Source: Syntrophales bacterium (GTDB taxonomy: Bacteria; Desulfobacterota; Syntrophia; Syntrophales; UBA6807). Taken from it: 64,000 nt of DNA. The translations under genes were made by a program, and so were the position numbers. The notes beneath the pieces are model-generated. The model ran no database searches. It worked only from the letters and a program-made list of their open reading frames with translations, and had not been told where the DNA came from. Location of the stretch: positions 64,001 to 128,000 of the forward strand of contig JAXGPA010000003.1 in assembly GCA_040767195.1 (NCBI GenBank), given 5' to 3'. How positions within the stretch are numbered: position 1 is the first letter of the stretch; each line of letters begins with the position of its first letter. This document shows positions 3,237 to 29,878 of this stretch, one piece after another.

Positions 3237-3315
3237 GATAAAAGAAAATACCCCGTGCCGGGAGTTGTGCCGTCGAAAGCCGGTGATTTCCCGTATCCAT
3301 GGAAGGGAGGAATCT

Positions 3316-4179: not shown

Positions 4180-4272
4180 GTCATGGTAAAATTCCTGGTG
4201 TCACCGGCATTTTTCGTTTATATATCGGAACCCCTGGGGTTCCGGACTGAGTACTATGCTTGGAGGTGAACA

Positions 4273-5109: not shown

Positions 5110-5118
5110 AAGGAATCG

Positions 5119-12755: not shown

Positions 12756-13493
12756 ATGAGGCAAGGAAAAAAAGCCCACGAAGGCCCCCGGGCGCTTCTT
12801 TCCGGGGTGCCGGGCCTCTCCGGCGCCGTGGTCCTTTTTCTTCTCCTGTTTCTGTCACCGCCCATGGAGCCATCCTTCGGGGTTGAAAATGCCGGAAAAG
12901 GAGACGCTCGTACCATGATTTCCCTGCCGAAACCACCTTTTTCCAAAACCCTTTCCATCGAGGAGGTCCTGGAAAAACGACGATCCGTCCGGAGATTCGC
13001 CCGGCGTCCCCTGACGGAAATGGAGATTTCCCGCCTCCTCTGGGCGGCCCAGGGAGTCACCGGCGGCGGCAGGGGCCGGACCGCGCCGTCCGCGGGGGCC
13101 CTCTACCCTCTCGAGGTTTATCTCGTCATCCCCGAAGGGGTGTACCGGTATCATCCCCAAAATCACGAACTCGGGATTCACCGGAAAGGGAATTTTCTCG
13201 GACAGCTTTCCGAAGCCGCCCTGGGCCAGGCCTCCGTCCGGGAGGCGCCGGCGGTGATCATTCTCGCGGCCGTGTACGAACGGGTCACCGGAAAGTACGG
13301 AAAACGGGGGGAACGGTACGTCATCCTGGAAGCGGGTCATGCCGCCCAGAACATCCACCTGGAGGCGGTGGCCCTCGGCCTGGGATCGGTTCCCGTCGGG
13401 GCTTTTCAGGACAGGTCCGTTCAGTCCGTCCTGGAACTTTCTCCGAACGAGGAACCCCTTTACCTCATTCCTGTAGGAGAGCCCCGGCCGTGA
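12756..13493 (+). CDS. SagB/ThcOx-family nitroreductase (FMN); start uncertain
   Basis: RRSVRRF, LLWAAQG, RTAPSAGALYPLE, EAGHAAQN. Confidence 0.9.
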   Translation: MRQGKKAHEGPRALLSGVPGLSGAVVLFLLLFLSPPMEPSFGVENAGKGDARTMISLPKPPFSKTLSIEEVLEKRRSVRRFARRPLTEMEISRLLWAAQGVTGGGRGRTAPSAGALYPLEVYLVIPEGVYRYHPQNHELGIHRKGNFLGQLSEAALGQASVREAPAVIILAAVYERVTGKYGKRGERYVILEAGHAAQNIHLEAVALGLGSVPVGAFQDRSVQSVLELSPNEEPLYLIPVGEPRP

Positions 13494-13755: not shown

Positions 13756-14460
13756 ATGGAAAGAGACGGAAACAAATTCCCTGATGTCCTGAAAAAGGAA
13801 ACGACCCGCCGGGGCTTTTTGAAAGGAGCCGCCACCGCAGCGGGCGGTGCGGTAGCCCTGGCCGCCATGGGCGGTGTCGCGGCGCCGAAAAAGGCGGCGG
13901 CGCAGGCGCCCAAAGATGTCATGCGCTACCTCTTCGCCGAGAGGCAGAACTGCACGGGCTGCCGGGCCTGTGAATATGCCTGTTCGGTTTATCACACCGG
14001 TGTTGTCAGGCCCTCCGTAGCGCGGGTTCATGTTCTCAAGTACCGGGGCGTGGTGGATGTGCCGGTCATCTGCTGGCACTGTGACGACGCGCCCTGTATC
14101 GAAGCCTGTCCCACAACCCCCAAGGCCATTCAGAAAGACAAGGTTTCCAACGGGATCATCCTGGACGAGAAAATCTGCCTGGGAGCCAAGTGCCTCAAGT
14201 GCGTCGATGCCTGCCCGGCGGAATTCCTCCGCGTGAACCCGGACATCGGGATGCCCCTCTTCTGCGACCTGTGCAAGGGCGACCCCGAGTGCGTCAAGGC
14301 CTGCGAGGCCCAGTCGGGAAACCCCCAGGGACCGTGCCTCATGGCGAACAAGCTGGGGTTCGGGGTGAACCAGGCCTACCGGAACGTGACGCCCGAGGAG
14401 GCGGGACAGGACCTCTTCGATCTCCTGTTCTATCCTGCTAAACCGGATGGAGGGAGGTGA
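13756..14460 (+). CDS. Tat-exported 4x[4Fe-4S] subunit (AorA/DmsB-type)
   Basis: TTRRGFLK twin-arginine motif, hydrophobic h-region, AQA cleavage site; four Cys cluster motifs. Confidence 0.92.
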   Translation: MERDGNKFPDVLKKETTRRGFLKGAATAAGGAVALAAMGGVAAPKKAAAQAPKDVMRYLFAERQNCTGCRACEYACSVYHTGVVRPSVARVHVLKYRGVVDVPVICWHCDDAPCIEACPTTPKAIQKDKVSNGIILDEKICLGAKCLKCVDACPAEFLRVNPDIGMPLFCDLCKGDPECVKACEAQSGNPQGPCLMANKLGFGVNQAYRNVTPEEAGQDLFDLLFYPAKPDGGR

Positions 14461-14465
14461 GAACC

Positions 14466-16280
14466 ATGGCAGCATCAAAAGGTGGGTATTTTGGAAGGAT
14501 CCTGGAGATCGACCTGTCGAAGCAGCAGTTCAAGGCCCGGCCGCTGTCCGATGAACTGGCGAGAACCTACATCGGCGGGGCGGGGCTCGGCGCCTATTAC
14601 CTGTTTACGGAAATGAAGGCGAAAGCCGATCCCCTGGGTGCAGACGCGCCCATTTTCATCGGCACGGGCCCCCTGAACGGGACCTACTGTGTCGCCACCC
14701 GGATGAGCATCGTCAACAAGAGCCCGTACACCGGTCTTTTGAGCCATGCCGAGGTGGGCGGCCACACGGGAAACGAAATCAAGTGGGCCGGCTGGGACGG
14801 GATCCTCATCAAGGGAAAATCGAAGAAACCGGTCTGGCTTTTCATCAAGGACGACACCGTCCAGTTCCGGGACGCCTCGAAGCTCTGGGGCAAGGACACG
14901 GACACGGCGTCGGAGATGATGCTCGCCGAAATCAAGGACCCCTATGCCCGGACGGCCGTCATCGGTCCGGCGGGCGAAAACGGGGTGCCCTATTCGTGCG
15001 TCGTCATCGAACGATTCCGGGCGGCCGCCCGGACGGCCACGGGGGCCGTCATGGGTGACAAGAAGCTGAAGGGTTTTGCCGTCAGGGGAACGAAGGCCGT
15101 TCCCGTGGCGGACAATAAAAAGTTTTACCTCGCCGCCTCCACGGCCAAGCAACTGGCCGTGGACAAGGAAGGCTGGCAGGGAATCAAGCGGTGGGGGACG
15201 GCGGGACTCCTGGAACTGAAGCACTGGGTTTCCGGTTCCCTCATCACGAAGAATTTCCAGACCACCTGGTACCCCGACATCGAGTACATCGGGGCGGAAG
15301 AGGCGAACCGCCGCTTCTGGAAGCGTCACGTGGCCTGCAACCACTGCCCCGTTCACTGCATGAAGCTCGGCGTTATCCGGGACGGGAAATACGCGGGTCT
15401 CATCGCCGAAGGCCCCGAATACGAGACGGGCGGGCTGCTGGGCAGCAACTGCGGCGTTTCCGACTTTGACGGCATGATGGCCGCCATCGAGGCCTGCGAT
15501 GCCCTGGGTCTCGATTCCATTTCGACAGGCGGTGTCCTGGGATTCACCATGGAGTGCGTTCAAAGGGAGATTCTCACCCCCAAGGACCTGGACGGTGTGA
15601 ACCTCGAGTGGGGCGACACCGACGCCATGGTGGAGATGATCCGGAAAATCGCCTACAAGGAAGGCAAAGCCGGGAAGCTTCTCAGCCAGGGCGTGGCGAA
15701 GATGGCGAAAGAAATCGGGAAAGGGTCCGAGGATTTCGCCGTCGTGTCTAAAGGTAAGGAAATCGCGGCCCACGACCCCCGGGGGGACAAGGGACGCGGT
15801 TACAGTTACGCCATGGGAACCTGCGGCGGGGACCATCACGAGGGAACCGACGCGGCCACCCTGGCCCGGTGGTGCATGATCAACTCGCTCGTCATGTGTT
15901 CGTTCGTCGGCGGCTATCCCTGGGGCAAGGAAACGCCCCCGGTGTTCACCAACATGCTGAACCCGCTGTGCGGCTGGAACATGACGGACGACGAGTTCTG
16001 GAAAACAGCCAGGAGAATCATGACCCTGGAACGGGCCTTCCAGGTCCGGGAAGGAGTCAGCCGGAAGGACGACGTCCTGCCGAAACGGTTCACCACGGAA
16101 ACACTGCCGGAGGGCCCGAAGAAAGGGGCCATCTACAGCGCCGAAGACACGAAGAAGATGCAGGACAGCGTCTACGGATACTTCGGCTGGGACGACAACG
16201 GGATCCCCACGGAAAAGACCCTGAGCGATCTCGGTCTCGGGTTCGCCGTGGCGGATGTAAAGAAAGCGGTTAAAGGTTAA
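14466..16280 (+). CDS. aor: Aldehyde:ferredoxin oxidoreductase family tungstoenzyme, catalytic subunit
   Basis: GYFGRILEIDL, KSPYTG, IGPAGEN, CNHCPVHC, GPEYET, DALGLDSIS, HDPRG, VMCSF; no signal peptide. Confidence 0.95.
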   Translation: MAASKGGYFGRILEIDLSKQQFKARPLSDELARTYIGGAGLGAYYLFTEMKAKADPLGADAPIFIGTGPLNGTYCVATRMSIVNKSPYTGLLSHAEVGGHTGNEIKWAGWDGILIKGKSKKPVWLFIKDDTVQFRDASKLWGKDTDTASEMMLAEIKDPYARTAVIGPAGENGVPYSCVVIERFRAAARTATGAVMGDKKLKGFAVRGTKAVPVADNKKFYLAASTAKQLAVDKEGWQGIKRWGTAGLLELKHWVSGSLITKNFQTTWYPDIEYIGAEEANRRFWKRHVACNHCPVHCMKLGVIRDGKYAGLIAEGPEYETGGLLGSNCGVSDFDGMMAAIEACDALGLDSISTGGVLGFTMECVQREILTPKDLDGVNLEWGDTDAMVEMIRKIAYKEGKAGKLLSQGVAKMAKEIGKGSEDFAVVSKGKEIAAHDPRGDKGRGYSYAMGTCGGDHHEGTDAATLARWCMINSLVMCSFVGGYPWGKETPPVFTNMLNPLCGWNMTDDEFWKTARRIMTLERAFQVREGVSRKDDVLPKRFTTETLPEGPKKGAIYSAEDTKKMQDSVYGYFGWDDNGIPTEKTLSDLGLGFAVADVKKAVKG

Positions 16281-16295
16281 AGAAATTTCAACGAC

Positions 16296-16323
16296 GGGCC
16301 GGTGCGGAAACCCGCATCGGCCC
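16296..16323 (+). promoter_or_regulatory. Strong intercistronic hairpin without U-tract (possible mRNA stabiliser)
   Basis: GGGCCGGTGCGG-aaac-CCGCATCGGCCC. Confidence 0.55.
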
Positions 16324-16414
16324 CCATGACCGATGTCAGCAACAGACGCTTCCGGTGAAAAGGGAAGATCCAGCCGGTGAGGTAACCTATCTGCAGGCTG
16401 GAGGGATGTGAACC

Positions 16415-17101
16415 ATGGGCTTTACAAGACGGGATGCCCTCCGGGTCCTCACGGGCGCCGCCGTTTCCGGCCTTTTCTTCGCTTTTCTCAAGATCCCCGG
16501 GGCGAAGGCCCTGCCGAGGCCTCCGGGCTCTCTCACGGAAAAGGCGTTTCTTCAGTACTGCACGCGGTGTTACCGGTGCATCGACGTCTGTCCCGCCGAC
16601 GCTCTCCGCCCGGCGGGCCTTTTCGATGGCATCCCCAACCTGGGGACCCCCGTTCTGGACTGGAAGAAGTGCATCTTCTGCCAGGAGTGCATTCGCGTTT
16701 GCCCCACCGGGGCCATCGTCAAGATACCCGAGGACGAGATCGACATCGGGAACGCCGTCATCGACCGGGACACCTGCCTGGACTGGACCCGTAAAAGGCG
16801 CTGCGGCATCTGCTACAAGGCCTGTCCCTACGATGCCATACGCCTTGAAGGGAGACGCAATCCCGTCGTTATCGAAGAGAAGTGCACGGGATGCGGTCTC
16901 TGCGAGCAGCGATGTCCCACGGACCCCAAGTCCATCGTCGTTTTTTACGACAAGTACCGGCGTTTCGACCCGCCGGAAGGGACCTTCATGGTCCGCCTGG
17001 AGGACCGGGTGGAGCCTTACGAATATCCGCCACCCGATTTCAGAACCTGGTTCATGAGAAGATTGGAAAAACTGGCAAGACAGCATGGCCTTATCGATTG
17101 A
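16415..17101 (+). CDS. NapG/MauM-type Tat-exported polyferredoxin
   Basis: FTRRDALR signal; RPPGS..E..F...CTRCYRCIDVCP; four cluster motifs. Confidence 0.88.
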   Translation: MGFTRRDALRVLTGAAVSGLFFAFLKIPGAKALPRPPGSLTEKAFLQYCTRCYRCIDVCPADALRPAGLFDGIPNLGTPVLDWKKCIFCQECIRVCPTGAIVKIPEDEIDIGNAVIDRDTCLDWTRKRRCGICYKACPYDAIRLEGRRNPVVIEEKCTGCGLCEQRCPTDPKSIVVFYDKYRRFDPPEGTFMVRLEDRVEPYEYPPPDFRTWFMRRLEKLARQHGLID

Positions 17102-17126
17102 TCCGGGCATTCCGGGAGACCCTTCC

Positions 17127-18314
17127 ATGGCCGTCCTCGTCGTCGGCGGCGGCGTGGCGGGGATTCTCGCCGCCCTCGATCTTGCCCGGGCAGGGCGACC
17201 GGTCACCCTGGTGGAACGGTCCCAACGCCTGGGAGGCCAGGTGGCCCGCCTGGACAAGATCTATCCCACCGACCACTGTGCCTTCTGCCCCCTCTGGACG
17301 GACATTCGAAACTGCCTCGAACATCCCGGAATCACCGTTCTGTCCTCGGCGACGGTCCGTAAACTGGAAAGAACGGGGGATCGATGGGCTGTCCGGATCC
17401 TTCGGGAACCCCCGGTTATCGAGGAACGCCTCTGCATTTTCTGCGGTCGCTGCGAATCCGCCTGCCCGGAAAGGGCCGTCCGGCCCCTCCTGGACCAGGC
17501 TTATCCCCCGGTGTACCGCATCGACGGGGACAGGTGCACCCATTGCGGGCAGTGTGAACCCGTATGCCCCACGAAAGCCATCGATTTCAATCGGAGGTCC
17601 GTGGAAGAACGGATCGTCGTCCAGGAGGTCCTCTGGGCCGCCGGCTTTCAGGACGGCGACTACAAGCCCCTTCCGGAATACGGTTACGGAACCCACCGGG
17701 ATATCATGACCGCCCTCGAGTTCGAGGAATGGACGGCCGAATCGGGGCCCAACGGCGGGCGGATCCTCCGGAAATCGGATCTCCGGGAGCCGTCCCGGGT
17801 GGCCTTCATCCAGTGCGCCGGTGCCCGGGACCTGAGAAACCTTTCCTACTGTTCCGCCGTCTGCTGCATGCACGCCCTGAAACAGGCTGCGTGGGTCAAG
17901 AAACGGAAACAAGACATTAATTGCACAATATTTTATACGGATTTACGGGCAGTTGGAAGAGATTACTTCAAGTATTCCATTAATAATGTTCCCGGGGAGC
18001 CTCTTCGTCTCATCAGGGGTCGCCCGGGCCTCGTTGTCGCCCTGCCCGGCGGCGGCATCGCCGTCACATACGAAGACACCCTGAAACAGGAACGAAGGAT
18101 CGAGCGCTTCGATCTTGTCATATTGAACGGAAACCTGAAGCCTTCCCTCAAGCCGGAAGGGGAACCGGGAACGCTTTCCCTGGACGGGGAGGGTTTCGTC
18201 GACATCGCCGTCGGTTTCGGCTGCGGATTTGCCGTCGAACCGGCCGATATCATGGATTCGGCCATTCAGGCGGCATCGGTTTCCATGCGCATTCTCGGAC
18301 GAGAAAACACTTGA
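17127..18314 (+). CDS. HdrA/QmoA-like FAD/FeS protein
   Basis: VLVVGGGVAG, LDKIYPTDHCAFC, ferredoxin insert, FIQCAGAR..YCSAVCC; start at the ATG after GGGAGA. Confidence 0.88.
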   Translation: MAVLVVGGGVAGILAALDLARAGRPVTLVERSQRLGGQVARLDKIYPTDHCAFCPLWTDIRNCLEHPGITVLSSATVRKLERTGDRWAVRILREPPVIEERLCIFCGRCESACPERAVRPLLDQAYPPVYRIDGDRCTHCGQCEPVCPTKAIDFNRRSVEERIVVQEVLWAAGFQDGDYKPLPEYGYGTHRDIMTALEFEEWTAESGPNGGRILRKSDLREPSRVAFIQCAGARDLRNLSYCSAVCCMHALKQAAWVKKRKQDINCTIFYTDLRAVGRDYFKYSINNVPGEPLRLIRGRPGLVVALPGGGIAVTYEDTLKQERRIERFDLVILNGNLKPSLKPEGEPGTLSLDGEGFVDIAVGFGCGFAVEPADIMDSAIQAASVSMRILGRENT

Positions 18315-18323
18315 GGAAAAATC

Positions 18324-20027
18324 ATGGCTGAAACGGTCGTCCTTCTTTGCCGGTGTTTCGGTGAAATCGACGGCGTCGTCGACCTCGACGGGATTGCCGG
18401 GCGCTTGAGAGAGGAAAACCAGGACACGTCCGTGTACCTGCTCGATTCCCTTTGCCAGGAAGACGACGGGCCCAAGATCGAAACGCTCTTCAGGGAGGAA
18501 AAAGCCCGGAAGGTCATCACCGCCCTTTGCGCCGGCGACCGGGGACACCATTCCCGCCGGAACGCCCTGCGAAATGCCGGTGTCGGGCCATCGGGGCATG
18601 CGACGGTGGACCTCCGGGAAGGGTGCGCCTGGATTCACCGAAGCGACCCCGCCGGTGCGACGGAAAAGGCCCTGGATCTTGTTTCCATGGCCCTGGCCGC
18701 CCTGGCGGAGAAAGAAACCTCCCGGGATGTCACCACGGCCGTTCATCCCCGCTGCGCCATTCTCGGCGCCGGCCCGGCGGGGCTGGCGGCGGCGGCGGCC
18801 CTGGCCGGTCAGGGCATTCCCGTTCATCTCATCGACCGGGCCGACCGGCCCGGCGGAATGCTGAACCTGATTTCCAAAATATACCCGGAAGACGACGATG
18901 CAAAAAGCCGGATCGACCCCTTTGTCCGGGAAATGGAAGTGAACGAACGCATCACCTTTCATCCCCGTTCCCGGGTGACCGCGGTGACGGGATTCGCCGG
19001 AAATTTCAAGATCACCGCGGAGGGACCGGACGGGCCTTTCCGTTTTCGGGCCGGCGCCGTCATCATCGCCACCGGCGCCGGTGTTTTCCTGCCCCGGGGC
19101 CTTTACCGGTACGGGGAACTCAAAGAGGTGATCACGCAGATCGAACTGGAACGGCAGTGGATCAAGGGGACGCCGGAAAAGAAACGGTTTGCCTTTATCC
19201 AGTGCGTCGGGGCCCGCTCTCCTGAAAGGCCTTACTGTTCCACGATCTGCTGCCCCTCAAGTCTGAAAAACGCCGTGCGGGTCGTGGCGGAAATTCCAGG
19301 CGGCGAGGCGACGGTCTTCCACCGGGACATCATGACACCGGGAAGCGTCCTGGAGGAATATTACCGCCGGTCCATGGAAAAAGGAGTCCGTTACGTCCGG
19401 TTCCAGGAAGACGGCCCCCCGGAAATCCTCGGGGAAAAGGGTGTCGAGGCGGTCCGGGTCCGGGATGCCGGAAGCGGAAAAGAGCAGGTCCTTCCGGTGG
19501 AGACGGTCGTTCTGAGCACGCCCCTCGTCCCGAACAGGGACAATGGCGCCCTGTCCGCCCTTTTCCAGGTAGGGCTGGACAGCCATGGTTTCTTTTCCGA
19601 GACGTATCCCCTCCATCCCCTGGAAACCCGCCTGGATGGTATCTTCATTGCTGGTTCCGCCCGCTGGCCCGTGTCGTCGGAGAAGGCCGTGGAGCAGGGG
19701 CAGGGGGCCGCCATGAAAGCCCTGGCCCTCCTGAGACGGGACCGCATTTCCGCCCTGTCTCTCAGCCGTACGCCGGAAGAAAAGCCGGGCCACGGAACCG
19801 TGGCGGAATACGCCTGCACGGGCTGCGGCAACTGCGTGGCCGTGTGCCCCTTCGAAGCCTGTGCTCTCCAGGAAAGGGACGGCGGCCGATTCGTGAGCCG
19901 GGTGAACAAGATGCGCTGCAAGGCCTGCGGAAGCTGCGTGTCCGTGTGCCCCAACGGGACCATGCAGATACCGGAGCACAATTACCGCGTGACGGCCGCC
20001 ATGATCCGCCGGTCTTTTTCGTCGTGA
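18324..20027 (+). CDS. HdrA/QmoB-like FAD/FeS protein
   Basis: LCRCFGEI...LC...LREGCAWIH N-domain, GAGPAG, FIQCVGAR..YCSTICC, C-terminal 2x[4Fe-4S]. Confidence 0.9.
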   Translation: MAETVVLLCRCFGEIDGVVDLDGIAGRLREENQDTSVYLLDSLCQEDDGPKIETLFREEKARKVITALCAGDRGHHSRRNALRNAGVGPSGHATVDLREGCAWIHRSDPAGATEKALDLVSMALAALAEKETSRDVTTAVHPRCAILGAGPAGLAAAAALAGQGIPVHLIDRADRPGGMLNLISKIYPEDDDAKSRIDPFVREMEVNERITFHPRSRVTAVTGFAGNFKITAEGPDGPFRFRAGAVIIATGAGVFLPRGLYRYGELKEVITQIELERQWIKGTPEKKRFAFIQCVGARSPERPYCSTICCPSSLKNAVRVVAEIPGGEATVFHRDIMTPGSVLEEYYRRSMEKGVRYVRFQEDGPPEILGEKGVEAVRVRDAGSGKEQVLPVETVVLSTPLVPNRDNGALSALFQVGLDSHGFFSETYPLHPLETRLDGIFIAGSARWPVSSEKAVEQGQGAAMKALALLRRDRISALSLSRTPEEKPGHGTVAEYACTGCGNCVAVCPFEACALQERDGGRFVSRVNKMRCKACGSCVSVCPNGTMQIPEHNYRVTAAMIRRSFSS

Positions 20028-20052
20028 AAGGCCGGGGCGGCGAGGAAAAGCC

Positions 20053-20553
20053 ATGGACGCCGAAAAGAATAAACAGGGATTGAAAGGGGGGGAGGAAAGA
20101 GGGAAGGCGGGAGCGCCATCCCCGAAGATCCTCGTTTTCGCCTGCCGCTGGTGCGGCGGGATCGGCGCCGGCCGGGCGGGCTGGAAACGCCTGGACCTTC
20201 CCATCTCCTTTCGGGTCATCCCGGTGGAGTGCGCCGCCCTGGTGGAACCGGACGCCATTTTCAGGGCCCTGGCGTCAGGCATCGACGGGGTGGCCGTCCT
20301 GGGCTGTCACATCGGGGGGTGCCGCTACAACGAGGCCAATCATGCCGCCCTGAAGCGGCTGGAACTGGTCAAGGTCCTTCTCGACACGGTGGGAATCGGG
20401 GGGCGGCGGCTTCTCCTCGCTTTCGGGACCGCCCACGAGGATCACCAGTTCGCCGAGGTGATCCGGAATTTTCATGAATCCATCGGTAAGGAGCCCTCTC
20501 TGGGACCCTGGCTCGGGGCAGGTGAAGATGTTTTCCTGCGGCGGGAGGAATGA
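20053..20553 (+). CDS. mvhD: MvhD/FlpD-like [2Fe-2S] subunit
   Basis: ILVFACRWC, IPVECAALV, GIDGVAVLGCHIGGCRY. Confidence 0.88.
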   Translation: MDAEKNKQGLKGGEERGKAGAPSPKILVFACRWCGGIGAGRAGWKRLDLPISFRVIPVECAALVEPDAIFRALASGIDGVAVLGCHIGGCRYNEANHAALKRLELVKVLLDTVGIGGRRLLLAFGTAHEDHQFAEVIRNFHESIGKEPSLGPWLGAGEDVFLRREE

Positions 20554-21398
20554 TGGAAGAAATCCGGAAAAAGGCCCGGGAACTTCTCGAAAAAAATGAC
20601 GCCGACGGTGTTCTCGCCCTGCGGCAGGGGGAAGAGGCCGCCGTGAAGCCCTATCTCTTCCGGGAACTCGGCGAAATCGACCATCTCGTCACCGAGCCCA
20701 AGTGGCCCCTGGCCAAGACGGCCATGAGGATCCTCCAGTCCTCTCCCCGGGATTTCCGTCTTGCCGTGGTCGTCCGGGGCTGTGACGACAGGGCCCTGGT
20801 GGAACTGGCCAAGAGAAACCAGGTCATGGAAGAGAACATCCGGTTCATCGGCCTGGCCTGCACGGAAGAACAGGCGGGAAGATGCTTGTGTGAAAGACCC
20901 TACCCCCGGACGATTCACGGGGGAAAGCCCCAGCCGGGCGTTCACTTCCTCCAGGACGAGCGGGTTTTCAGCCTCCTCGAGGGCGACCCCGCGGAAAGAA
21001 TGGAACGGTGGGCGGCCATTCTCAGGCGCTGCATCAAGTGCTACGGGTGCCGGAACGCTTGCCCGATCTGCGTGTGCGTCCCCTGCAAACTCGAGGACGA
21101 CGTGTGGGTGGAGAAAGGTTCCATCCCCGCGGAGATGCTCGTTTTTCACCTCATCCGGGCTTTCCACCTGTCCGACGCCTGTGTTGCCTGCGGGGCCTGC
21201 CAGGAGGCCTGTCCCGTTTCCATCCCCGTCATGGCCCTCCAGTTCGCCATGCGCCAGGCCCTGAAGGACCGCTTTGGGTACGAGCCGGGGCTCGACGGTG
21301 CCCGAAAGTCGCCCGTCCTGAAAAACTTCCTGGAGGAACCGGAGGCGGGGCAGGACTATCCCGCCTGGATCACCCACGGGGGCACGGGACATGAGTGA
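20550..21398 (+). CDS. FdhB/FrhB-like iron-sulfur subunit
   Basis: VVRGCDDRALVELAKRNQ, RCIKCYGCRNACPICVC..C, CVACGACQEACP. Confidence 0.85.
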   Translation: MMEEIRKKARELLEKNDADGVLALRQGEEAAVKPYLFRELGEIDHLVTEPKWPLAKTAMRILQSSPRDFRLAVVVRGCDDRALVELAKRNQVMEENIRFIGLACTEEQAGRCLCERPYPRTIHGGKPQPGVHFLQDERVFSLLEGDPAERMERWAAILRRCIKCYGCRNACPICVCVPCKLEDDVWVEKGSIPAEMLVFHLIRAFHLSDACVACGACQEACPVSIPVMALQFAMRQALKDRFGYEPGLDGARKSPVLKNFLEEPEAGQDYPAWITHGGTGHE

Positions 21399-23427
21399 TT
21401 CCTTCGTCAGGACCATCTGTCCCTACTGTGGAACGGGGTGCGGCCTGATCCTCAGGGTCCTCGACGGGGCGGTCGTCGAGTGCCTTCCCGACCGGGATCA
21501 CCCCGTGAGCCGGGGGCATCTCTGTGTCAAGGGGTGGTACGCCCACGAGTTCATTCATCACCCCGAGAGGCTGACGACGCCCCTCGTCCGGGAAGGTGAC
21601 CGGTTCCGGCCCGTCTCCTGGAAAGAGGCCGTCTCCCTGGCGGCGGAGAGGTTCAGGGCAACGGCGGAGAAATACGGGGGAAATGCTATCGGGGGGCTGT
21701 CCTCGGCGAAGTGCACGAACGAGGAGAACTACCTCTTTCAGAAGCTGATCCGTGCCGCCTTCGGGACAAACAACGTGGACCACTGCGCCCGGCTCTGCCA
21801 CGCCCCCACGACGGTGGCCATGGCCCGGTCCCTCGGGAGCGGGGCCATGACCAATTCCATCGCGCACCTTTCCCGCGCCGGGTGCATCCTGATGATCGGA
21901 TCCAACGCCGCGGAAAGCCACCCCATCATCATGGGGGAAATCTACCGGGCCGTCGATGGCGGGGCCACCCTCATCGTCGTCGATCCCCGGAAAACGGCGG
22001 CGGCGGAAAACGCCCATATCCACCTGGCCATCCGGCCGGGCACGGACATTCCTCTCGTCTGCGGCATGATGAGGCACATCATCGATTCAGGACTTCACAA
22101 CGGGTCCTTCATTGGCGAGAGAATGGAGGGGTTCGAGGAACTCAGGGCCTTTCTTTCCGACTGGACGGTGGAACGGGCGGCCCGGGAATCGGGTATACCC
22201 GAGGCGGACCTGCGCGAGGCCGCCGAGCTTTTTGCCCGGGCGCGGGAAGGGGCGGTGGTCTACTGCATGGGCATCACCCAGCACGCCTGCGGCACCGCCA
22301 ACGTCTTCGCCCTTTGCGATCTCGCCATGCTGTGCGGCCACGTGGGCCGGGAAGGTTCGGGCATCTATCCTCTCCGGGGACAGAACAACGTTCAGGGGGC
22401 CTGCGACATGGGGGCGCTGCCCAACGTCTACCCGGGATACCAGGCGGTCAGTGATCCCGCCGTCCGGGACACGTTCCGGAAGGCCTGGGGAAGGGATCTG
22501 TCCGACCGGCCGGGGCTCACGGTCACGGAAATGATCGGTGCCGCAGGAGAGGACATCCGGGCCCTCTTCATCATGGCGGAGAACCCCGCTCTCAGCGACC
22601 CCGACGTGAATCACGTGCTGGAGTGCCTCCCGGCCCTGGATTTTCTCGTCGTCCAGGACATCTTCCTCACCGAGACCGCCCGGCTCGCCCACCTCGTCCT
22701 GCCCGGGGCCTGTTATGCCGAAAAAACGGGAACTTTCACGAATACGGAGCGGCGCTTTCAGCTGCTTCGAAAAGCCGTGGAGCCGCCCGGGGACGCCGAG
22801 GACGATTTTTCCATTCTCTGCCGTCTCGGCCGGGCCCTGGGGCTCGATTTTCCCTATCGAAACCCTGGTGAGGTCATGGAGGAAATCGCCGCCATGGCGC
22901 CGGCTTACGGGGGGATCCGCTACGGCCGTCTCGAAAAGGAGGGGATTCAGTGGCCCTGCCCGAACATCGAGCACCCGGGAACGGCCTTCCTGCACAAGGA
23001 CCGATTCACCCGGGGAAAAGGCCTTTTCGTGGTACCGGACCACGTACCGCCCCGGGAATCCCCCGACGGAGACTATCCCTTCTGGCTCAGCACGGGCAGG
23101 ATGTTTGCCCACTACCACACGGGAACCATGACCCGCCGGTCAGCATTTCTGAACCGCGAACAGGAAGAGCCTTACGTGGAAATTCACCCGGAAGACGCCC
23201 GAGAGCTTGCTCTCGAAGATGGAGACCCCGTTCGGATCACCTCCCGCCGGGGCAGCATCGTCACGACGGCGCGGGTGACCAGGCGTGTCGCCCGGGGGGC
23301 CCTCTTTGCCCCGTTTCATTTCACGGAGGCCCGGGCCAACCGGCTGACCAACCCTGTCCTGGACCCGCTGTCGAAAATTCCCGAATTCAAGGCCTGCGCC
23401 GCCAGGGTGGAGAAGATCAAGGCATGA
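21391..23427 (+). CDS. fdhA: Cytoplasmic formate dehydrogenase alpha subunit (FdhF-type, Cys ligand)
   Basis: CPYCGTGC...LCVKG, NNVDHCARLCHAP, LRGQNNVQGACDMG, HYHTGTMTRR; no Tat signal. Confidence 0.95.
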   Translation: MSDSFVRTICPYCGTGCGLILRVLDGAVVECLPDRDHPVSRGHLCVKGWYAHEFIHHPERLTTPLVREGDRFRPVSWKEAVSLAAERFRATAEKYGGNAIGGLSSAKCTNEENYLFQKLIRAAFGTNNVDHCARLCHAPTTVAMARSLGSGAMTNSIAHLSRAGCILMIGSNAAESHPIIMGEIYRAVDGGATLIVVDPRKTAAAENAHIHLAIRPGTDIPLVCGMMRHIIDSGLHNGSFIGERMEGFEELRAFLSDWTVERAARESGIPEADLREAAELFARAREGAVVYCMGITQHACGTANVFALCDLAMLCGHVGREGSGIYPLRGQNNVQGACDMGALPNVYPGYQAVSDPAVRDTFRKAWGRDLSDRPGLTVTEMIGAAGEDIRALFIMAENPALSDPDVNHVLECLPALDFLVVQDIFLTETARLAHLVLPGACYAEKTGTFTNTERRFQLLRKAVEPPGDAEDDFSILCRLGRALGLDFPYRNPGEVMEEIAAMAPAYGGIRYGRLEKEGIQWPCPNIEHPGTAFLHKDRFTRGKGLFVVPDHVPPRESPDGDYPFWLSTGRMFAHYHTGTMTRRSAFLNREQEEPYVEIHPEDARELALEDGDPVRITSRRGSIVTTARVTRRVARGALFAPFHFTEARANRLTNPVLDPLSKIPEFKACAARVEKIKA

Positions 23428-23888
23428 AGAGAGAGGACGACAGGCTCGCCCGGGTCAGGAAATATTCCAAGGCATACGCCTGTGTCGAGTGCGGGCGGTG
23501 CGTCGCCGTGTGCCCCATGGCGGAGATGTACGCCGACTTTTCCATCGAAATGTCCCCCCGGGGCATCATTCGGAAGGCCCTTCGAGACGGCGGGGGTGTC
23601 CTTACCGACGAAAACATCTGGTACTGCACGGAGTGCAATGCCGGAACGGACGTCTGTCCCCAGGGCGTGAGCTGCCGGGACCTCATCCGGGGACTCCGGG
23701 AACTCGTCCTGGAGAGGCATCCCGCGGAAAAGGTGTCTTATTGCCGGGATTGTGGAAACCCCTTTCTCGCCCTACCGGTGGAACGCTTCGTCATGGGGAG
23801 ACTGGAACAGGAACCGCCCAATGTCCGGGCCCTTCTGGAAAGGTGTCCCGCCTGCAGGCGGCTCACCTATGCCCGGCGAAACGCCTGA
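23424..23888 (+). CDS. HdrC-like 4Fe-4S protein
   Basis: CVECGRCVAVCP, SPRGII, IWYCTECNAGTDVCPQGV, C-terminal CRDC/CPAC; ATG overlaps the fdhA TGA. Confidence 0.82.
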   Translation: MKREDDRLARVRKYSKAYACVECGRCVAVCPMAEMYADFSIEMSPRGIIRKALRDGGGVLTDENIWYCTECNAGTDVCPQGVSCRDLIRGLRELVLERHPAEKVSYCRDCGNPFLALPVERFVMGRLEQEPPNVRALLERCPACRRLTYARRNA

Positions 23889-23919
23889 CCCCCGCCCGGC
23901 GGGGCTGAAACGACGGAAC

Positions 23920-25239
23920 ATGGAAACCAAAAAGGCAAAAACGGACCACGATTCCCCATCCCCTTTTCTGAACCTGGAGGATCTCCGTCCCAGGCTGGTG
24001 CCCCGGGAAAGATTCACCGACCGGTTCATGCCCCGGCGCAGCGGGCAGCTTCTTTTCGACCCGTCCCGGTGCACCGGGTGCGGTACCTGCGAGATGGTCT
24101 GCGGAAGCCGGAACGTGTCCCTCGTGGCCCCGGCCTCGGCCAGCGTGAGGGTTTTCAGGGATGAGGGGCGGGGGAAGAATTTCGCCCTCTATTGCCAGCA
24201 CTGCCGCCGGCCCCTTTGCCTGGAGGCGTGCCCGACACGGGCCATCACCAGGGGGGAGGACGGTATCGTTCGTATCGACAGGGTTTTCTGCGTCGCCTGC
24301 GGCCTGTGCACCATGGCCTGTCCCGAGGCGGCGCCGCTGCGGGACCATCGGACGAAAGAGATCCACAAGTGCGATCTCTGTGAAGGGGACCCCCTGTGCG
24401 CCCGTCACTGCCCCGAGGGGGCCCTTTCCTTTACCCGGGGCAAGGCTTTCCGCTGGATCAAGGGACTCCGGTGGACCGTCCAGGCTCTTTTTTTCCTGCT
24501 CCTCGTTTTCATCCTCATCGGCACGTTCTGTTCCTTCCAGGCGGGGGTCGTGAGCCTTTCCTGTCCCACCGGGATTCTTCAGAACATCGCCTCCACGAAA
24601 ACCATCGTCCTCACCGGAATCGCCACCGCCCTGGCTCTGCTCCTCCTGACGGTTATCGCCGGCAGGCTTTTCTGCGGCTGGATCTGCCCCTTCGGGTTCG
24701 TTCTCGACCTGGTCGGCAAAGTTGTTCCAAAGAAAATCAGCCCGCCCCGCTGGCTGGCCAACAGGCTGAACAAGTACGGTCTTCTCGCCGGCGCCGTGGG
24801 TGGAAGTTTCGCCCTCGGTTACCAGGCCTTCTGCACCGTCTGTCCTATCGGGACGCTGTGCCGCTCTTACGGCGTTCAGGGGTTTTTCCGGGGGGCTGAA
24901 CTGGCCATCGTTCCCGCCCTGGCGGCCCTGGAGGTCACGGAAAGGCGCTCCTGGTGCCGCTATTTCTGCCCCGTGGGGGCCCTTCTCGCCCTGGTGGCAT
25001 CGCTCGGGCTCATCAAGATCGTCATCGGCGCAAAAAAATGCAAGAAATTTTCCTGCGTCCAGTGCGCCGAAGTCTGCCCAGTCGGGATTATCGACGGAAA
25101 CCTGCTCCGGGAAGGGGTCTCCCCGAAGATTCCCATGACCGAGTGCATCTCCTGCTTCCGGTGCATCGACCGCTGTCCTTACGGGGCGGCGAAAATCCGG
25201 TTCCGCTGGCAGAAGGGCGTTCCCGGCGAGGAGGCGTGA
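23920..25239 (+). CDS. Fusion of an AorA/DmsB-type 4x[4Fe-4S] domain and a NapH/MauN-type membrane polyferredoxin
   Basis: Four N-terminal cluster motifs, then TM helices with CPTG, FCGWICPFG, FCTVCPIG, WCRYFCPVG and two C-terminal clusters. Confidence 0.85.
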   Translation: METKKAKTDHDSPSPFLNLEDLRPRLVPRERFTDRFMPRRSGQLLFDPSRCTGCGTCEMVCGSRNVSLVAPASASVRVFRDEGRGKNFALYCQHCRRPLCLEACPTRAITRGEDGIVRIDRVFCVACGLCTMACPEAAPLRDHRTKEIHKCDLCEGDPLCARHCPEGALSFTRGKAFRWIKGLRWTVQALFFLLLVFILIGTFCSFQAGVVSLSCPTGILQNIASTKTIVLTGIATALALLLLTVIAGRLFCGWICPFGFVLDLVGKVVPKKISPPRWLANRLNKYGLLAGAVGGSFALGYQAFCTVCPIGTLCRSYGVQGFFRGAELAIVPALAALEVTERRSWCRYFCPVGALLALVASLGLIKIVIGAKKCKKFSCVQCAEVCPVGIIDGNLLREGVSPKIPMTECISCFRCIDRCPYGAAKIRFRWQKGVPGEEA

Positions 25240-26561
25240 TGAGCCCCTACAAATGCTATTACAACCACAACGTCGGTCTGGTTGACCTCACGGAAAAGAC
25301 CTTCCGCGTCCTCCCCCTGCCGCCGGAGGGCGTCCGGGAGCACCTGGGCGGGGCTCCCCTGAACGCCTATCTTCTTGGCCTGTATGAAGGGAAGGACCCT
25401 CTCGTCCTGGGGACGGGACCGCTCACGGGCAGTTTCGCTCCCGCGTCGTGCCTTCTCGTGGCGACTTTCCGGCCCCCGGGGTCCTCGAGGCCGGCCCACG
25501 TTCCCCTGACCCTTCGAACGGGTCCGGAAATGAAGTTCAGCGGACTCGACTTTCTCGTCATTCACGGCCGTTCTTCCTCGCCGGTTGTACTGAAAATCAA
25601 GAACGGGGAAGGAACCTTCGCCGGCGGGGAGGGGATTCACGGTAAAAATCTCACCGAAGCCCAGGCGTCGCTTCATCGGTTCGGGGAGTTTCGCGCCGTT
25701 CTTCTGGCAGGCCGGGCGGGGGCGCTCCAGGTACCCCGGGCCACTGCCCAGGTCGGACAGGCCGGCAGTTTCGACAAGGCGGGGCTGGCCCTCTGGATGG
25801 GCCGAAAAAACCTGGAGGGGATCCTTTTTCAGGGAGCCGGGGGGCTTTTCTTTGCCGGTGACCACGCCGGCCTTTCCCTGGAACTGGGAAAAAGAATCCG
25901 GTTGAAGGAAGGAAAGCCGGAAGGCTTCCGAAGCCTTCTCAAAAAAACAGGTGGAAATATCCTGGCGGGTGACCTTTTCCGAGGGACGGACGAAAAGATC
26001 ATGGCGTGCTACCACTGCCTGTATCCCTGCATGACCCGGCTGTCCTTTTCCAACAGGCGTTTCGTTTCGGGCCGGGATAAAGTGCGGCGGGAATCGGTGT
26101 GGCTGGCCGACTCCGTGGGCTTTACATCGCTGGTCGAAAAAAGACCGGCCGACGTCCTGCCCCTTTTAAAAGCCTGCCGGGAATTCGGTCTCGATCCACA
26201 GGCCGTGGTTCCCGTCCTCAACAGAGAAGACCCTTACAGCGACACCCTGGTCCGCCTGGAGTCCCTCCTTCTCGAGAATAACGGGAAAGAGCCGCCGGTG
26301 CAGGGGGAGGTGGCTTCTTTCGCGAGCGGGATGCCGTCCCCGGACGTCCCCGGCGGGGAGGAGGAAACCGCCTCGACGAAAAAGAAGATGGCCATGGCCA
26401 TGATCCTGGGCATCTGCCCCCTTTTCCTCTTCCTCGTACCCTGCCTGGACGTGCCTGATTACCTGAATTTTCTCCCGAGAGAAAAGGGAGCCTCGGCCTT
26501 CTACAGGGAAAAAGTCGAAGAACTCTCGGAGAGGCTCATCGGGGAATATCCCGTCCCCTGA
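25239..26561 (+). CDS. Degenerate AOR-family paralogue (~440 aa)
   Basis: VDLTEK, HLGG, LGTGPLTG, GPEMKFSGLD, MGRKNL, CYHCLYPC, FGLD, GICP; no EYET or DPRG. Confidence 0.8.
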   Translation: MSPYKCYYNHNVGLVDLTEKTFRVLPLPPEGVREHLGGAPLNAYLLGLYEGKDPLVLGTGPLTGSFAPASCLLVATFRPPGSSRPAHVPLTLRTGPEMKFSGLDFLVIHGRSSSPVVLKIKNGEGTFAGGEGIHGKNLTEAQASLHRFGEFRAVLLAGRAGALQVPRATAQVGQAGSFDKAGLALWMGRKNLEGILFQGAGGLFFAGDHAGLSLELGKRIRLKEGKPEGFRSLLKKTGGNILAGDLFRGTDEKIMACYHCLYPCMTRLSFSNRRFVSGRDKVRRESVWLADSVGFTSLVEKRPADVLPLLKACREFGLDPQAVVPVLNREDPYSDTLVRLESLLLENNGKEPPVQGEVASFASGMPSPDVPGGEEETASTKKKMAMAMILGICPLFLFLVPCLDVPDYLNFLPREKGASAFYREKVEELSERLIGEYPVP

Positions 26562-27953: not shown

Positions 27954-28685
27954 TCAGGTGTTTTCCGGGACCCTCTCATCCTGTTCCTTTGCGCCGGGAT
28001 TCCGTTCCGGCCTTTTTGTTTCAAGCCGTTGAACCCACAGGGGGTGTCTCTTCCGGGCATAATCCAACCGGACGGAACCGGTGAAGATACTTCGAACGAG
28101 GGGGCGGTTGGGTTTGAGGATCAGGGCCCCCAGGTGGGCCACAAAAGCCAGGATGAAGAGAATGAAAGCGGTGTTGTGAACCCAGGTGGCAATCATGACG
28201 AGAGGGGGTGACAACTGGGGATCGAACAGGTTCTTCCAGGTTTTCACGAGACCGGAAAGAATGAGCAGTCCGATAATGAAAGCCATTCCGGCGTAGGCGA
28301 GCCTCTGTTCGGGGAGGTACTTGTCGAAAGGCGGTTCCTCCCCCTTCCCGAAAAAGGAACGGATCACCTCCACGGAAGCCCGGAGGTCGCCCTTCCGGGG
28401 CATCATGCCGTCATGGCGGAGAAGTCCGTGATAAACGAGGTGAAACGCGCCCGCGGCGATGAAGACAATGGAGGCGGCGTAGTGAATCTTGAGGGACGTG
28501 ATGTAGTCTCCCGACCAGCCGAGGCCGGGAAGTTCTGTGATGAAATACCGCCTGGCGATGGGCAGTTCGAAAAGGCCCGTCAGAAGCAGGACGAGGCCCG
28601 AGAGAGCGATGGTCCAGTGCTCGACCCGTTCGAGGAGGCTGTGCCGGACGACGACGCCTTTTTTTTCCAGTATCCGATCCGTCAT
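27954..28685 (-). CDS. Cytochrome b subunit (FdnI/FdhC-like)
   Basis: RHSLLERVEHW, IHY, FHLVYH, KYLPEQR, WVHN, AHL, SIFTG...HPLW. Confidence 0.88.
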   Translation of the reverse strand: MTDRILEKKGVVVRHSLLERVEHWTIALSGLVLLLTGLFELPIARRYFITELPGLGWSGDYITSLKIHYAASIVFIAAGAFHLVYHGLLRHDGMMPRKGDLRASVEVIRSFFGKGEEPPFDKYLPEQRLAYAGMAFIIGLLILSGLVKTWKNLFDPQLSPPLVMIATWVHNTAFILFILAFVAHLGALILKPNRPLVRSIFTGSVRLDYARKRHPLWVQRLETKRPERNPGAKEQDERVPENT

Positions 28686-28688
28686 TTC

Positions 28689-29675: not shown

Positions 29676-29701
29676 GAAGCCTCCTGAAAACGCGATGCGA
29701 T

Positions 29702-29878
29702 TCAATCTTCCCAGTCCCGGTTCTTCCGGGCCCGTTTTTCCATTTCCATCTCCTCGGCCAGCCGCTCTTTCTCTTTCATGCAGGCGCTGCAGCAGGGAAG
29801 GGTTCCACACTGCCCCTTGCAATCGGAGAAATCGATGCCTTCGAAAGGGACGGGTTTTCCGTTCTTTTTGTCACCCAT
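29702..29878 (-). CDS. Small Cys-rich protein (58 aa), below the ORF-track cutoff
   Basis: MGDKKNGKPVPFEGIDFSDCKGQCGTLPCCSACMKEKERLAEEMEMEKRARKNRDWED*; GAGG SD 7 nt upstream; co-oriented with the FeS/cyt b pair. Confidence 0.65.
   Translation of the reverse strand: MGDKKNGKPVPFEGIDFSDCKGQCGTLPCCSACMKEKERLAEEMEMEKRARKNRDWED

Follow-up and report, generated by a model that had tools for sequence, protein, structure and literature searches.

Eleven co-oriented genes fill positions 13,756 to 26,561 on the forward strand of a Syntrophales genome, numbered within the window, the whole 64,000-nucleotide stretch of DNA that was analysed. The reading that we favour, at a probability of about 0.47, is that they encode a membrane-spanning redox assembly in which aldehydes are oxidised in the periplasm and the electrons, after a confurcation step, yield formate inside the cell. 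That the genes build a single wired assembly is likely; the inward direction of flow and the confurcating coupling are put forward with less assurance and fall a little short of an even chance.

As proposed, WorS and WorL (g1 and g2) would leave the cytoplasm by Tat, and an aldehyde would be oxidised at the periplasmic tungsten centre. Electrons would pass from WorS to a NapG-like protein (g3), through the membrane domain of g10 to its cytoplasmic clusters, and by way of an HdrC-like protein (g9) to the FAD of HdrA' (g4), where they would be confurcated with lower-potential ferredoxin electrons entering through the inserted ferredoxin domain. The path would then lead via g5, MvhD (g6) and FdhB (g7) to FdhA (g8), at which CO2 would be reduced to formate, while g11 would cap the WorS-like domain of g10, either structurally or as a relay. 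This presumes contacts g1–g3–g10 and g10–g11; with protons set free on the outer side and taken up on the inner, the chain would work as a redox loop.

The first-pass annotation had counted ten genes while itself listing eleven. The count had to be raised; the co-orientation stood, the family labels were borne out by domain and profile matches, and the observation as a whole proved real. Its interpretation held in part: the unit, the exported tungsten oxidoreductase (WOR), the membrane link and the HdrB-less Hdr–Fdh module found support, and several background assumptions did not. Intergenic distances lie between −17 and +31 nt, save for the 134 nt between aor (g2) and napG (g3). The same order was found in all 20 Syntrophales loci fetched, up to where their contigs end, at protein identities of 34–77%, so the arrangement is not due to chance. 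Beyond Syntrophales, synteny was seen in three further lineages, and the cluster recurs in Desulfobacterales and Desulfovibrionaceae. Among 151 sampled genomes, g2 orthologues occurred in 26 and g10 in 28, all Syntrophales; the 26 are all among the 28, and a g2-type WorL without g10 was found in none of the other 123. The idea that the aor–napG and hdr–fdh parts might occur independently gave way to one conserved unit, with g10 in all 26 WorL genomes. The literature searched gave no match to such an arrangement, in keeping with the early claim that no complex of this composition had been described; sulfate-reducer genomics or HdrA reviews may mention the locus.

Several exceptions count against the favoured reading. 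The fdhA gene is absent from the cluster in three Desulfovibrionaceae loci (L065, L066 and L123), which also speaks against formate as the obligatory end point assumed at first; one genome (G153) has no molybdopterin-oxidoreductase match anywhere, these genomes being drafts; g11 is missing from two Desulfobacterales clusters (L121 and L130); and on one short contig (L125) WorSL is followed by thiF, with no napG. A ThiF pair was considered as an obligate partner and rejected, as nine of the 151 genomes have it and five of these are carriers.

The tungsten enzyme and its small subunit

The first gene, g1 (13,756–14,460; 234 aa), encodes WorS, a Tat-tagged (TRRGFLK) small subunit for four [4Fe-4S] clusters, with 16 invariant cysteines and with R18, R19 and F21 at least 90% conserved over 50 aligned rows. 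It is followed by g2 (14,466–16,280; 604 aa), the AOR-family enzyme WorL, in which no signal peptide was seen and which matches AFOR_N and AFOR_C with 230 and 350 bits. Within the WorL group of g2, 51 of 56 rows have a Tat motif on the WorS encoded upstream (Tat signals were judged by motif alone), the other five being cut by a sequence end and some rows repeating one gene. With this tagged subunit next to WorL, g1 would carry g2 to the periplasm, in line with the export claimed at first.

The cluster cysteines of g2 (C291, C294, C298 and C478) are invariant, and its second shell consists of T245, E320, H436 and H457. Compared with Thr243, Glu313, Tyr427 and His448 of P. furiosus AOR, whose roles have been described (PMC12096430), the aldehyde-type Thr, Glu and His are kept and the Tyr position is taken by His436, a change also described in an active AOR and in WOR5. 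Throughout the g2 group Tyr427 is replaced by His or Trp, and because this change is shared with the sulfonate-converting WOR5, the substrate may be something other than a simple aldehyde; this weighs against the favoured reading, as does the fact that no periplasmic source of aldehyde was identified. The enzyme is not of the BamB type, BamB (4z3w) being the weakest of nine PDB matches and the aldehyde residues being present. Genes for TupB, TupC and a TupA-like protein lie at 3,265–6,839 of the window, an indirect pointer to tungsten.

The first-pass statement that characterised AORs are cytoplasmic overlooked the class V WORs, whose small subunit is Tat-tagged and for which no activity is known (PMC13328260). 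This class (clade 41: E. coli YdhYVWXUT, Cetobacterium somerae WOR41 or CsWOR41; PMC13328260) likewise has a Tat-signal WorS followed by WorL, with membrane partners nearby, and g1 resembles it by the motif test and in its further subunits. In contrast to g2, YdhV lacks the EYE and His residues, and the Ydh partner is a cytochrome b where NapG/NapH and Hdr–Fdh are found here. WorL itself appears to fall outside clade 41: g2 is 28% identical to YdhV and reaches 222 bits against a YdhV model (cut-off 868) on which Desulfobacterota Ydh members score 739–1016 bits, and in a quick tree, a phylogeny having been suggested at first pass, it lay outside a six-member Ydh clade. When it was the sole Ydh member, YdhV was a long branch beside the g2 group, a placement given up once the addition of five others drew it into a clade apart. 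The g2 group and its sister group may or may not form one clade (support 42), and a shared origin of the exported WORs is possible. In the first 34 rows of the clade-41 list of 37 genera there is no Desulfobacterium, Desulfosarcina or member of the Negativicutes, and g2-type proteins are perhaps already classed in the 92-clade WOR scheme (Table_1.xlsx of PMC13328260).

The cytoplasmic module and the direction of flow

Genes g4 to g9 correspond to one functional half of the methanogen Fdh–MvhD–Hdr complex with HdrB absent, and their content agrees with the HdrA–HdrA–MvhD–Fdh module proposed at the outset. As had been noted, no HdrB/CCG gene lies in the cluster, which sets it apart from the HdrABC heterodisulfide reductase; the CCG matches of this genome are on contigs C1 and C6. 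HdrA' (g4; 17,085–18,314; 409 aa) has a FAD domain, a C65–C68 motif, an inserted ferredoxin and K266, and HdrA (g5; 18,324–20,027; 567 aa) has an N-terminal domain, a FAD domain and a C-terminal ferredoxin. With g6 (20,053–20,553; 166 aa), a [2Fe-2S] adaptor of the FlpD/MvhD family with five invariant cysteines, they hold the TrxR-fold FAD, Fe-S motif, lysine, two ferredoxins and MvhD of an HdrA-type module. The PTxxCxxC motif occurs in 38 of 40 g4 rows and none of 38 g5 rows, an N-terminal CxC in all 38 g5 rows and none of the 40 g4 rows; g4 would be the bifurcating half and g5 the mobile-arm half. This split provides the one donor arm and one FAD'/inserted-ferredoxin acceptor that the methanogen and BamE wiring need. 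A lysine beside the FAD is kept in both halves, however, so that no single bifurcating flavin is pointed out, and this counts against the favoured reading.

The FdhB-like Fe-S protein g7 (20,550–21,398; 282 aa) finds its best PDB matches in methanogen FdhB (9t1s_M, 7bkb_E and 8rvu_E), with about 45 residues where the latter has about 150. The cytoplasmic formate dehydrogenase FdhA (g8; 21,391–23,427; 678 aa; Fdh-alpha 838, cut-off 666) carries CARLCH with C136, at which codon two relatives have an in-frame TGA read as selenocysteine. The HdrC-like two-cluster protein g9 (23,424–23,888; 154 aa), with a C-terminal CxxC...CxxC domain, matches HdrC best in the PDB.

The methanogen Fdh–MvhD–Hdr and Elp–Hdr complexes (7BKB, 8RVU, 9T1S; PMC12350162) are the best PDB matches of g5, g7 and g9 and share the domain set of arm and core, whereas here HdrA is two complementary genes, HdrB is absent, FdhB is short by about 100 central residues and the HdrC end is predicted to sit on a membrane protein. 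BamBCDEFGHI (bioRxiv 10.64898/2026.04.10.717634) likewise combines an AOR-family tungsten subunit, an asymmetric HdrA pair (fused in BamE) and an MvhD-like adaptor, and has, like the cluster, one TrxR half with CxxC near the bifurcating FAD. This class II benzoyl-CoA reductase is cytoplasmic and includes BamD (CCG) and BamGHI, for which the cluster has no genes. Its tungsten subunit has a Cys ligand and no aldehyde residues and stands on the low-potential branch, whereas here a Tat-linked enzyme would be wired to the HdrC end, an opposition that we count against our proposal. QmoABC and HdrABC–FlxABCD of sulfate reducers also have an HdrA-like pair, MvhD and an HdrC-like subunit, and Qmo is membrane-anchored. 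The cluster differs from them in having no haem-b QmoC domain, no HdrB and no FlxA; Flx is also treated in PMC6491731. A separate HdrL–MvhD–HdrC–HdrB–Flx-like cluster lies at 576–589 kb of C1.

Going by redox potentials and an assumed membrane potential of 150 mV, aldehyde electrons would stand at −430 to −250 mV on reaching the cytoplasm, a range appropriate to the HdrC branch. Five Negativicutes loci pair a sister WorSL and NapG with a NapH that has the same nine membrane cysteines and with an NAD(P)-type flavoprotein, a partner that makes inward flow the downhill direction; fusions of NapH-type domains with flavoproteins of this kind occur in P0183 and P0202, and tatA or tatC genes lie inside or beside sister-clade operons. 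Flow in the opposite direction is unlikely. Formate would then be oxidised, HdrA' would bifurcate to ferredoxin and HdrC, and electrons would travel outward via g10 and NapG to a WOR reducing a periplasmic carboxylic acid or sulfur compound. This would match methanogen Fdh–Hdr and canonical NapGH flow and would place the WOR where HdrB stands, at the acceptor end; sulfur-transport-family and cysteine-desulfurase genes within a Negativicutes operon and the Tyr-to-His change common to g2 and WOR5/ASOR point the same way. Acid reduction by a WOR needs about −500 mV or lower, however, and would draw on the membrane potential with no evident benefit, the NAD(P)-type flavoprotein of the Negativicutes would be a weak donor for it, and the present genome, in which no dsrA was found, suggests a fermenting or syntrophic organism with electrons to get rid of. 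In favour of our reading, the Syntrophales family UBA2192, whose name one carrier locus (L054) bears, expresses formate-forming genes in fatty-acid syntrophy (PMC7382037).

The membrane link and quinones

The NapG-like, Tat-tagged (TRRDALR) four-[4Fe-4S] protein g3 (16,415–17,101; 228 aa), NapG/MauM-like below cut-off and with R5 and R6 at least 90% conserved in 43 rows, would be a periplasmic relay. Its putative membrane partner g10 (23,920–25,239; 439 aa) is a fusion of a WorS-like four-cluster domain, closest to the WorS chains of class III/IV WORs, with a NapH/MauN-like membrane domain (below cut-off) and a C-terminal ferredoxin; it has the four membrane helices, two CxxxCP motifs and C-terminal 2x[4Fe-4S] of NapH/MauN, and five further invariant cysteines, absent from E. 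coli NapH, on what is inferred to be its outer face. NapGH, NosGH and PceMN likewise join a Tat-tagged four-cluster NapG to a four-helix NapH with two CxxxCP motifs and a C-terminal ferredoxin. They serve a nitrate, N2O or organohalide reductase, whereas g10, with its added WorS-like domain and five cysteines and a score of 113 against a TIGR02163 cut-off of 213, goes with a WOR and an Hdr module. The class III/IV WOR nanowires (Aromatoleum AorABC, 8C0Z; Acetomicrobium WorABCSL, 9MQX) are located in the cytoplasm and terminate in NAD or HydABC-type modules. The presence of g10 in every WorL-bearing Syntrophales genome sampled (26 of 26) favours the membrane link claimed at first pass.

A full-length AlphaFold model of g10 from 41 sequences (pLDDT 47) was set aside; a model of the membrane part (pLDDT 90) has four long helices and gave no Foldseek match in the PDB at E<=0.001, which does not make the fold a new one, and its sole PDB matches were ferredoxin domains (best Z 6.8, residues 193–257). 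Subunit-pair modelling, which the first-pass annotation had called for, covered g9–g10, and HdrC-like g9 is predicted to dock on the fusion: the score was 0.66 against 0.00 for the best of three controls, the runs share at least 92% of contacts, and the partner pLDDT is 79. Among solved complexes, 116 of 157 attain the score mark, against two of 215 mismatched pairs; with our own alignments these counts are rough.

The last gene, g11 (25,239–26,561; 440 aa), is a WorL-like pseudo-enzyme that matches AFOR_N only, retaining C257, C260, C264 and C393. The AFOR_C domain with its catalytic and pterin-binding residues is missing, and EYE aligns to unrelated residues, so that the "double AOR" of the first interpretation reduces to one enzyme and a protein with four [4Fe-4S] cysteines. 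A recent duplication of g2 was rejected as its origin, since the g11 profile scores other WorL groups equally or higher.

About as unlikely as outward flow is a Qmo-like arrangement of two quinone-linked halves, in which WorSL and NapG would reduce menaquinone at g10 and Hdr–Fdh would separately draw menaquinol, for example in reverse electron transport from beta-oxidation to formate. PMC5928378 describes NapGH as a menaquinol dehydrogenase; sulfate-reducing carriers have mqn genes, futalosine-pathway genes occur in G852 and G153, MenA-like prenyltransferases in this genome and two others (G007 and G045) would allow precursor scavenging, and g9 resembles QmoC weakly (31 bits against a cut-off of 300). 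Yet none of the 28 Syntrophales carriers passes the MenD or the MqnC cut-off (G080 is a near miss), which makes the quinone link first assumed for NapG/NapH doubtful in this order; the five outer-face cysteines also argue against it, and menaquinol plus ferredoxin would, going by their potentials, be borderline for CO2 reduction. A bolder form of our favoured reading, which we hold somewhat unlikely, would make g10 a quinone-free, all-iron-sulfur transmembrane wire with an extra metal cluster on those cysteines, part of a respiratory-type loop that feeds periplasmic aldehyde oxidation at tungsten into the high-potential branch of the HdrA flavin and, with ferredoxin, supports formate export in syntrophs seemingly devoid of Rnf and menaquinone synthesis; elsewhere the wire would be a portable module plugged into NAD(P)-linked flavoproteins.

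The spacer, neighbouring genes and significance

The aor–napG spacer holds a 12-bp hairpin (16,296–16,323), terminator-like or mRNA-stabilising, without a U tract in this copy. Hairpins of −20 kcal/mol or lower were found in 35 of 35 related spacers (median length after aor 148 nt), with a T-rich tail in 25, and worSL may therefore be its own transcript. A promoter and terminator scan gave no signal above shuffles. In metatranscriptomes, four runs (two studies) have coverage of the cluster and also of its flanks, and one contig (16,113–16,795) spans the hairpin, although contigs cannot show transcripts. The class III/IV nanowire idea of several WorSL units feeding one output module would suit both the tandem worSL copies and the hairpin.

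That a periplasmic, aldehyde-detoxifying WorSL and a separate NapG–Hdr–Fdh–NapH complex are mere co-regulated neighbours that both need tungsten is quite improbable: the conserved hairpin and long spacer, a ModE-like regulator upstream in eight loci, tup/moeA genes beside some clusters, a cytochrome P460-family gene upstream in 13 loci as a possible alternative acceptor, and ten Negativicutes and two Desulfobacterales loci whose fetched DNA shows a sister Tat-WorSL but matches neither napG nor napH (also counted against our reading) fit this, but WorL keeps to g10 throughout the sample, WorSL–NapG–NapH remain joined when the cytoplasmic module is swapped, and the cluster offers NapG no other partner in the periplasm.

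For the exported class V WORs, which have no known reaction, the g2 group offers a tractable test case with aldehyde-type residues and an obvious electron outlet. Desulfobacterota commonly have HdrB-less HdrA modules, for most of which no high-potential partner is known; here one is predicted. The transmembrane electron path of NapH-type domains is unsettled, and the one modelled here has no match among solved structures. Cultured organisms for testing are within reach: G852 has all eleven genes, one of its proteins being identical to the NCBI-named Aor4 of Desulforapulum autotrophicum HRM2, and a g2-group WorL is present in Desulfosarcina widdelii. If it exists, a formate-terminated redox loop would give Syntrophales, living near the thermodynamic limit, a new means of energy conservation.

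Layout and conservation of the cluster

Eleven genes in a single orientation fill positions 13756-26561, overlapping or spaced by at most 31 nt, with the exception of 134 nt past the AOR gene. Each gene label of the first-pass annotation was backed by Pfam and NCBIfam, and its remark that no HdrB/CCG subunit is present also held for the cluster. The HdrB-like gene of this genome sits in a second, HdrL-Flx-like cluster (contig C1:576588-588515), which comprises a 1464-aa HdrL-type gene, MvhD, FdhB-like, HdrC, HdrB, two Flx-like and two NfnAB-like genes, labelled partly by sequence inspection. Upstream of the eleven genes, at a distance of 7-10 kb (3265-6839, plus strand), are tupB, tupC and a pair of tupA-like genes, one of which carries a TTTS motif, the TupA signature. 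An amino-acid-kinase-family gene (8285-9142, minus strand) resembles a Mo/W storage protein, and tatA and tatC matches were found on contig C8. A SagB-type nitroreductase upstream of the cluster (12756-13493, plus strand) is near it in just one of 20 relatives, and a twin-arginine Fe-S protein with a cytochrome b561-type gene but no catalytic subunit, 1.4 kb beyond the cluster on the opposite strand (27954-29822, minus), does not recur as a neighbour in related loci.

The fusion gene g10 was surveyed in 151 genomes sampled evenly from the order of the window (Syntrophales, by the titles of the relatives' records) and occurs at 66% identity or more in 28; orthologues of the WorL gene g2 occur in 26, all within those 28. 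Conserved gene order had been put forward as a check, and among the 20 loci fetched, of 27 non-self Syntrophales loci, the order is identical in every one as far as contigs reach. The complete set is visible in 18; fdhA is frameshifted in one locus and hdrC in another. Six Desulfobacterales genomes share the order, two of them without g11; in Desulfovibrionaceae, fdhA is relocated behind g11 in three genomes and absent from three loci. Beyond Syntrophales, where only four to eight candidates were scored per genome, WorL is patchy, since it was found in 3/301 sampled genomes of the order of genome G151, 4/161 of its family and 6/301 of the family of genome G153. All eleven genes are present in genome G852, which encodes a protein 100% identical to P0126, named Aor4 by NCBI, of Desulforapulum autotrophicum HRM2. 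The Figure 4 legend of the 2009 genome paper lists hdrA-mvhD loci followed by fdhB-fdhA, with "Aor5" and a ferredoxin among the neighbours (PMC2702500). Going by this legend, the locus was probably already drawn there, under a different Aor numbering; the accessible part of that paper's text does not mention NapG (PMC2702500).

Several neighbours recur. At L021:3381-3878 and in 12 further loci, a secreted cytochrome P460-family gene with a CxxCH motif is the immediate 5' neighbour of worS or separates tandem worSL copies; it was looked for in the genome of the window and not found. A divergent ModE-like regulator (Pfam HTH_1) is upstream of the cluster at L021:2751-3134 and in seven further loci. 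Flanking the cluster in distant lineages are one or two ThiF-family genes beside a GNAT/FeeM-like or unknown gene (L060:3978-6553; L065:11741-12667); in the window's own genome they are unlinked to it (C6:283245-285799), and they are not obligate partners. Three Desulfobacterales genomes carry a second Tat-WorSL pair of another WorL clade (643 aa, 34% identity) directly upstream (L129:2314-4666, L134 and L135).

The tungsten enzyme and its partners

The g2 protein retains the four cluster cysteines together with T245, E320 and H457, and its His436 stands where P. furiosus AOR has Tyr427. According to the sections available of PMC12096430, these residues match the Thr, Glu, Tyr and His positions of the aldehyde second shell, the Tyr-to-His change is known from WOR5, which acts on sulfonates, and from one active AOR, and YdhV and BamB are without second-shell residues of this kind. 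In the WorS protein g1, the motif TRRGFLK is accompanied by an AxA site and a hydrophobic segment, and a Tat motif marks the upstream WorS in 51 of 56 rows of the WorL group of g2, a count that includes repeats of some genes; the remaining five are truncated by sequence ends. The earlier statement that characterised AORs are cytoplasmic has to give way, as exported WORs are already known as class V, defined by a Tat-tagged WorS, confined to clade 41 and with no activity reported in the parts available of PMC13328260. Judged by sequence, g2 is not a Ydh protein, because it has 28% identity to YdhV, reaches 222 bits with the YdhV model where eight Desulfobacterota members of the family score 739-1016, and falls in a separate clade of a 32-row quick tree.

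In 35/35 cases the aor-napG spacer folds into a hairpin at or below -20 kcal/mol, beating all six mononucleotide shuffles, with a T-rich tail in 25 of the 35; comparison spacers reached -20 in 5/14 (mvhD-fdhB) and 3/12 (hdrC-napH). Separation of the aor/napG and hdr/fdh parts had been named as counting against a single assembly. The median napG-hdrA' gap of 8 nt indicates tight coupling and, taken with the hairpin, places the break after worSL instead. Such a break fits either a surplus of WorSL, like that of WOR nanowires and of the tandem copies found in genomes G045, G104, G152 and G607, or separate transcription.

Whether WorSL and the remaining genes are independent neighbours can be weighed at loci with a sister WorL, found in 18 of 251 genomes of the class of genome G155. 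Among 16 loci examined (one broken), ten carry Tat-WorSL with neither napG nor napH matched in the fetched DNA, and tatA is directly upstream in the two of these that were listed in full; WorSL is therefore able to stand without the NapG-NapH set. In five others (L069, L147-L150) Tat-WorSL belongs to a Negativicutes operon, itself a candidate system, in which it is followed by two sulfur-transport-like genes, then NapG, a cysteine desulfurase, TatC, a flavoprotein of the NAD(P) type, NapH and a second TatC. Here the cytoplasmic terminus differs but WorSL-NapG-NapH is kept, a pattern that speaks for a wire and against neighbours brought together by chance. Fusions of NapH-type domains also occur, with extended C-terminal regions that lack annotation in P0177 and P0185 (870 and 786 aa) and with flavoprotein domains of the GltD type in P0183 and P0202 (749 and 708 aa).

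The membrane link and the cytoplasmic module

The N-domain of g10 is nearest to WorS chains 8c0z_C, 9mqx_E and 6x6u_B and, as it has no signal, should be cytoplasmic. The g11 protein and WorL can be aligned across 310 columns at a probability of 99.85; g11 retains the four invariant cysteines and has lost the EYE motif, and was rejected as a second catalytic AOR. The "double-AOR" of the first-pass annotation is thus, by sequence comparison, one enzyme and a pseudo-WorSL pair formed by the g10 N-domain and g11. The membrane part of g10 is modelled with four long helices (pLDDT 90); by analogy with NapH topology, C252/256 and C346/350 would face inward and C204, C215, C305, C308 and C314 outward. 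These nine cysteines are conserved without exception across 41/41 rows, Negativicutes included. The five outer ones are all lacking in E. coli NapH, and in a wider 152-row set all five occur in 21 rows and C215, C305 or C308 in 89 to 99.

Complex prediction for the HdrC-like g9 with g10 scored 0.66 against 0.00 for the best control, on a mark that 116/157 solved complexes and 2/215 mismatched pairs reach and that applies only roughly here; contact agreement was at least 92% and partner pLDDT 79. In the model g9 meets residues 77-147 of g10 through its C-terminal domain and a single cluster face, and some further contacts fall at 372-399, which supports binding of g9 to g10 as a predicted, not demonstrated, contact.

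Top PDB matches of g5, g7 and g9 are HdrA, FdhB and HdrC, all of methanogen Hdr complexes. The g4 protein has a PTxxCxxC motif (38/40 rows) and an inserted ferredoxin, and g5 an N-terminal CxC domain (38/38 rows) and a C-terminal ferredoxin. In the methanogen complex, as described in the available part of PMC12350162, FdhAB-MvhD together with the N- and C-domains of one HdrA forms an arm that serves the FAD of its partner HdrA; of the two electrons, the one at high potential is passed on towards the heterodisulfide, the one at low potential to the inserted ferredoxin. BamE, in what is accessible of bioRxiv 10.64898/2026.04.10.717634, is an asymmetric fused version with CxxC adjoining the bifurcating FAD. 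From these two precedents, g4-g9 are read as one functional half of the methanogen complex, minus HdrB. FdhA has CARLCH in 38/38 intact rows, and two relatives have TGA at that codon.

Electron flow and novelty

In the proposed mechanism, aldehyde would be oxidised in the periplasm and electrons would pass via NapG and g10 to HdrC; at the g4 flavin they would confurcate with ferredoxin, and CO2 would be reduced at FdhA. The potentials are -580 mV for aldehyde/acid and -410 mV for bicarbonate/formate. Calculated from these, with an assumed membrane potential of 150 mV, aldehyde electrons would come in between -430 and -250 mV when acid:aldehyde ratios run from 1 to 10^6, compared with about -300 mV for formate at 10 uM. 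These electrons would need a low-potential partner when aldehyde is scarce. Inward flow is favoured, with the reverse direction, a quinone-bridged version and independent neighbours as less likely alternatives.

A quinone-bridged version would draw on the two MenA-like genes of this genome (98.8% complete) and on MqnA/D in genomes G852 and G153. A search of the window's genome gave no dsrA and no MenC match, a profile search put none of RnfC, MqnA/D, MqnC and MenD over cut-off, and MenD and MqnC passed it in 0/28 Syntrophales carriers, with one near miss. The absences from this genome are soft evidence, because MoeA, required for the cofactor, is present in 4/4 relatives yet also has no match there, probably through an assembly gap. 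Five AOR-family genes, several formate dehydrogenases and four full-length iron alcohol dehydrogenases are encoded.

The claim that no complex of this composition has been described agrees with the full-text literature searched, subscription journals being largely outside it, and the combination does not appear in the parts available of PMC5109826, PMC6491731, PMC9012536, PMC5928378 and PMC7382037. Every module of the cluster has a known relative; what is new is the exported non-Ydh WOR, the predicted HdrC-NapH junction and a possible quinone-free wire.
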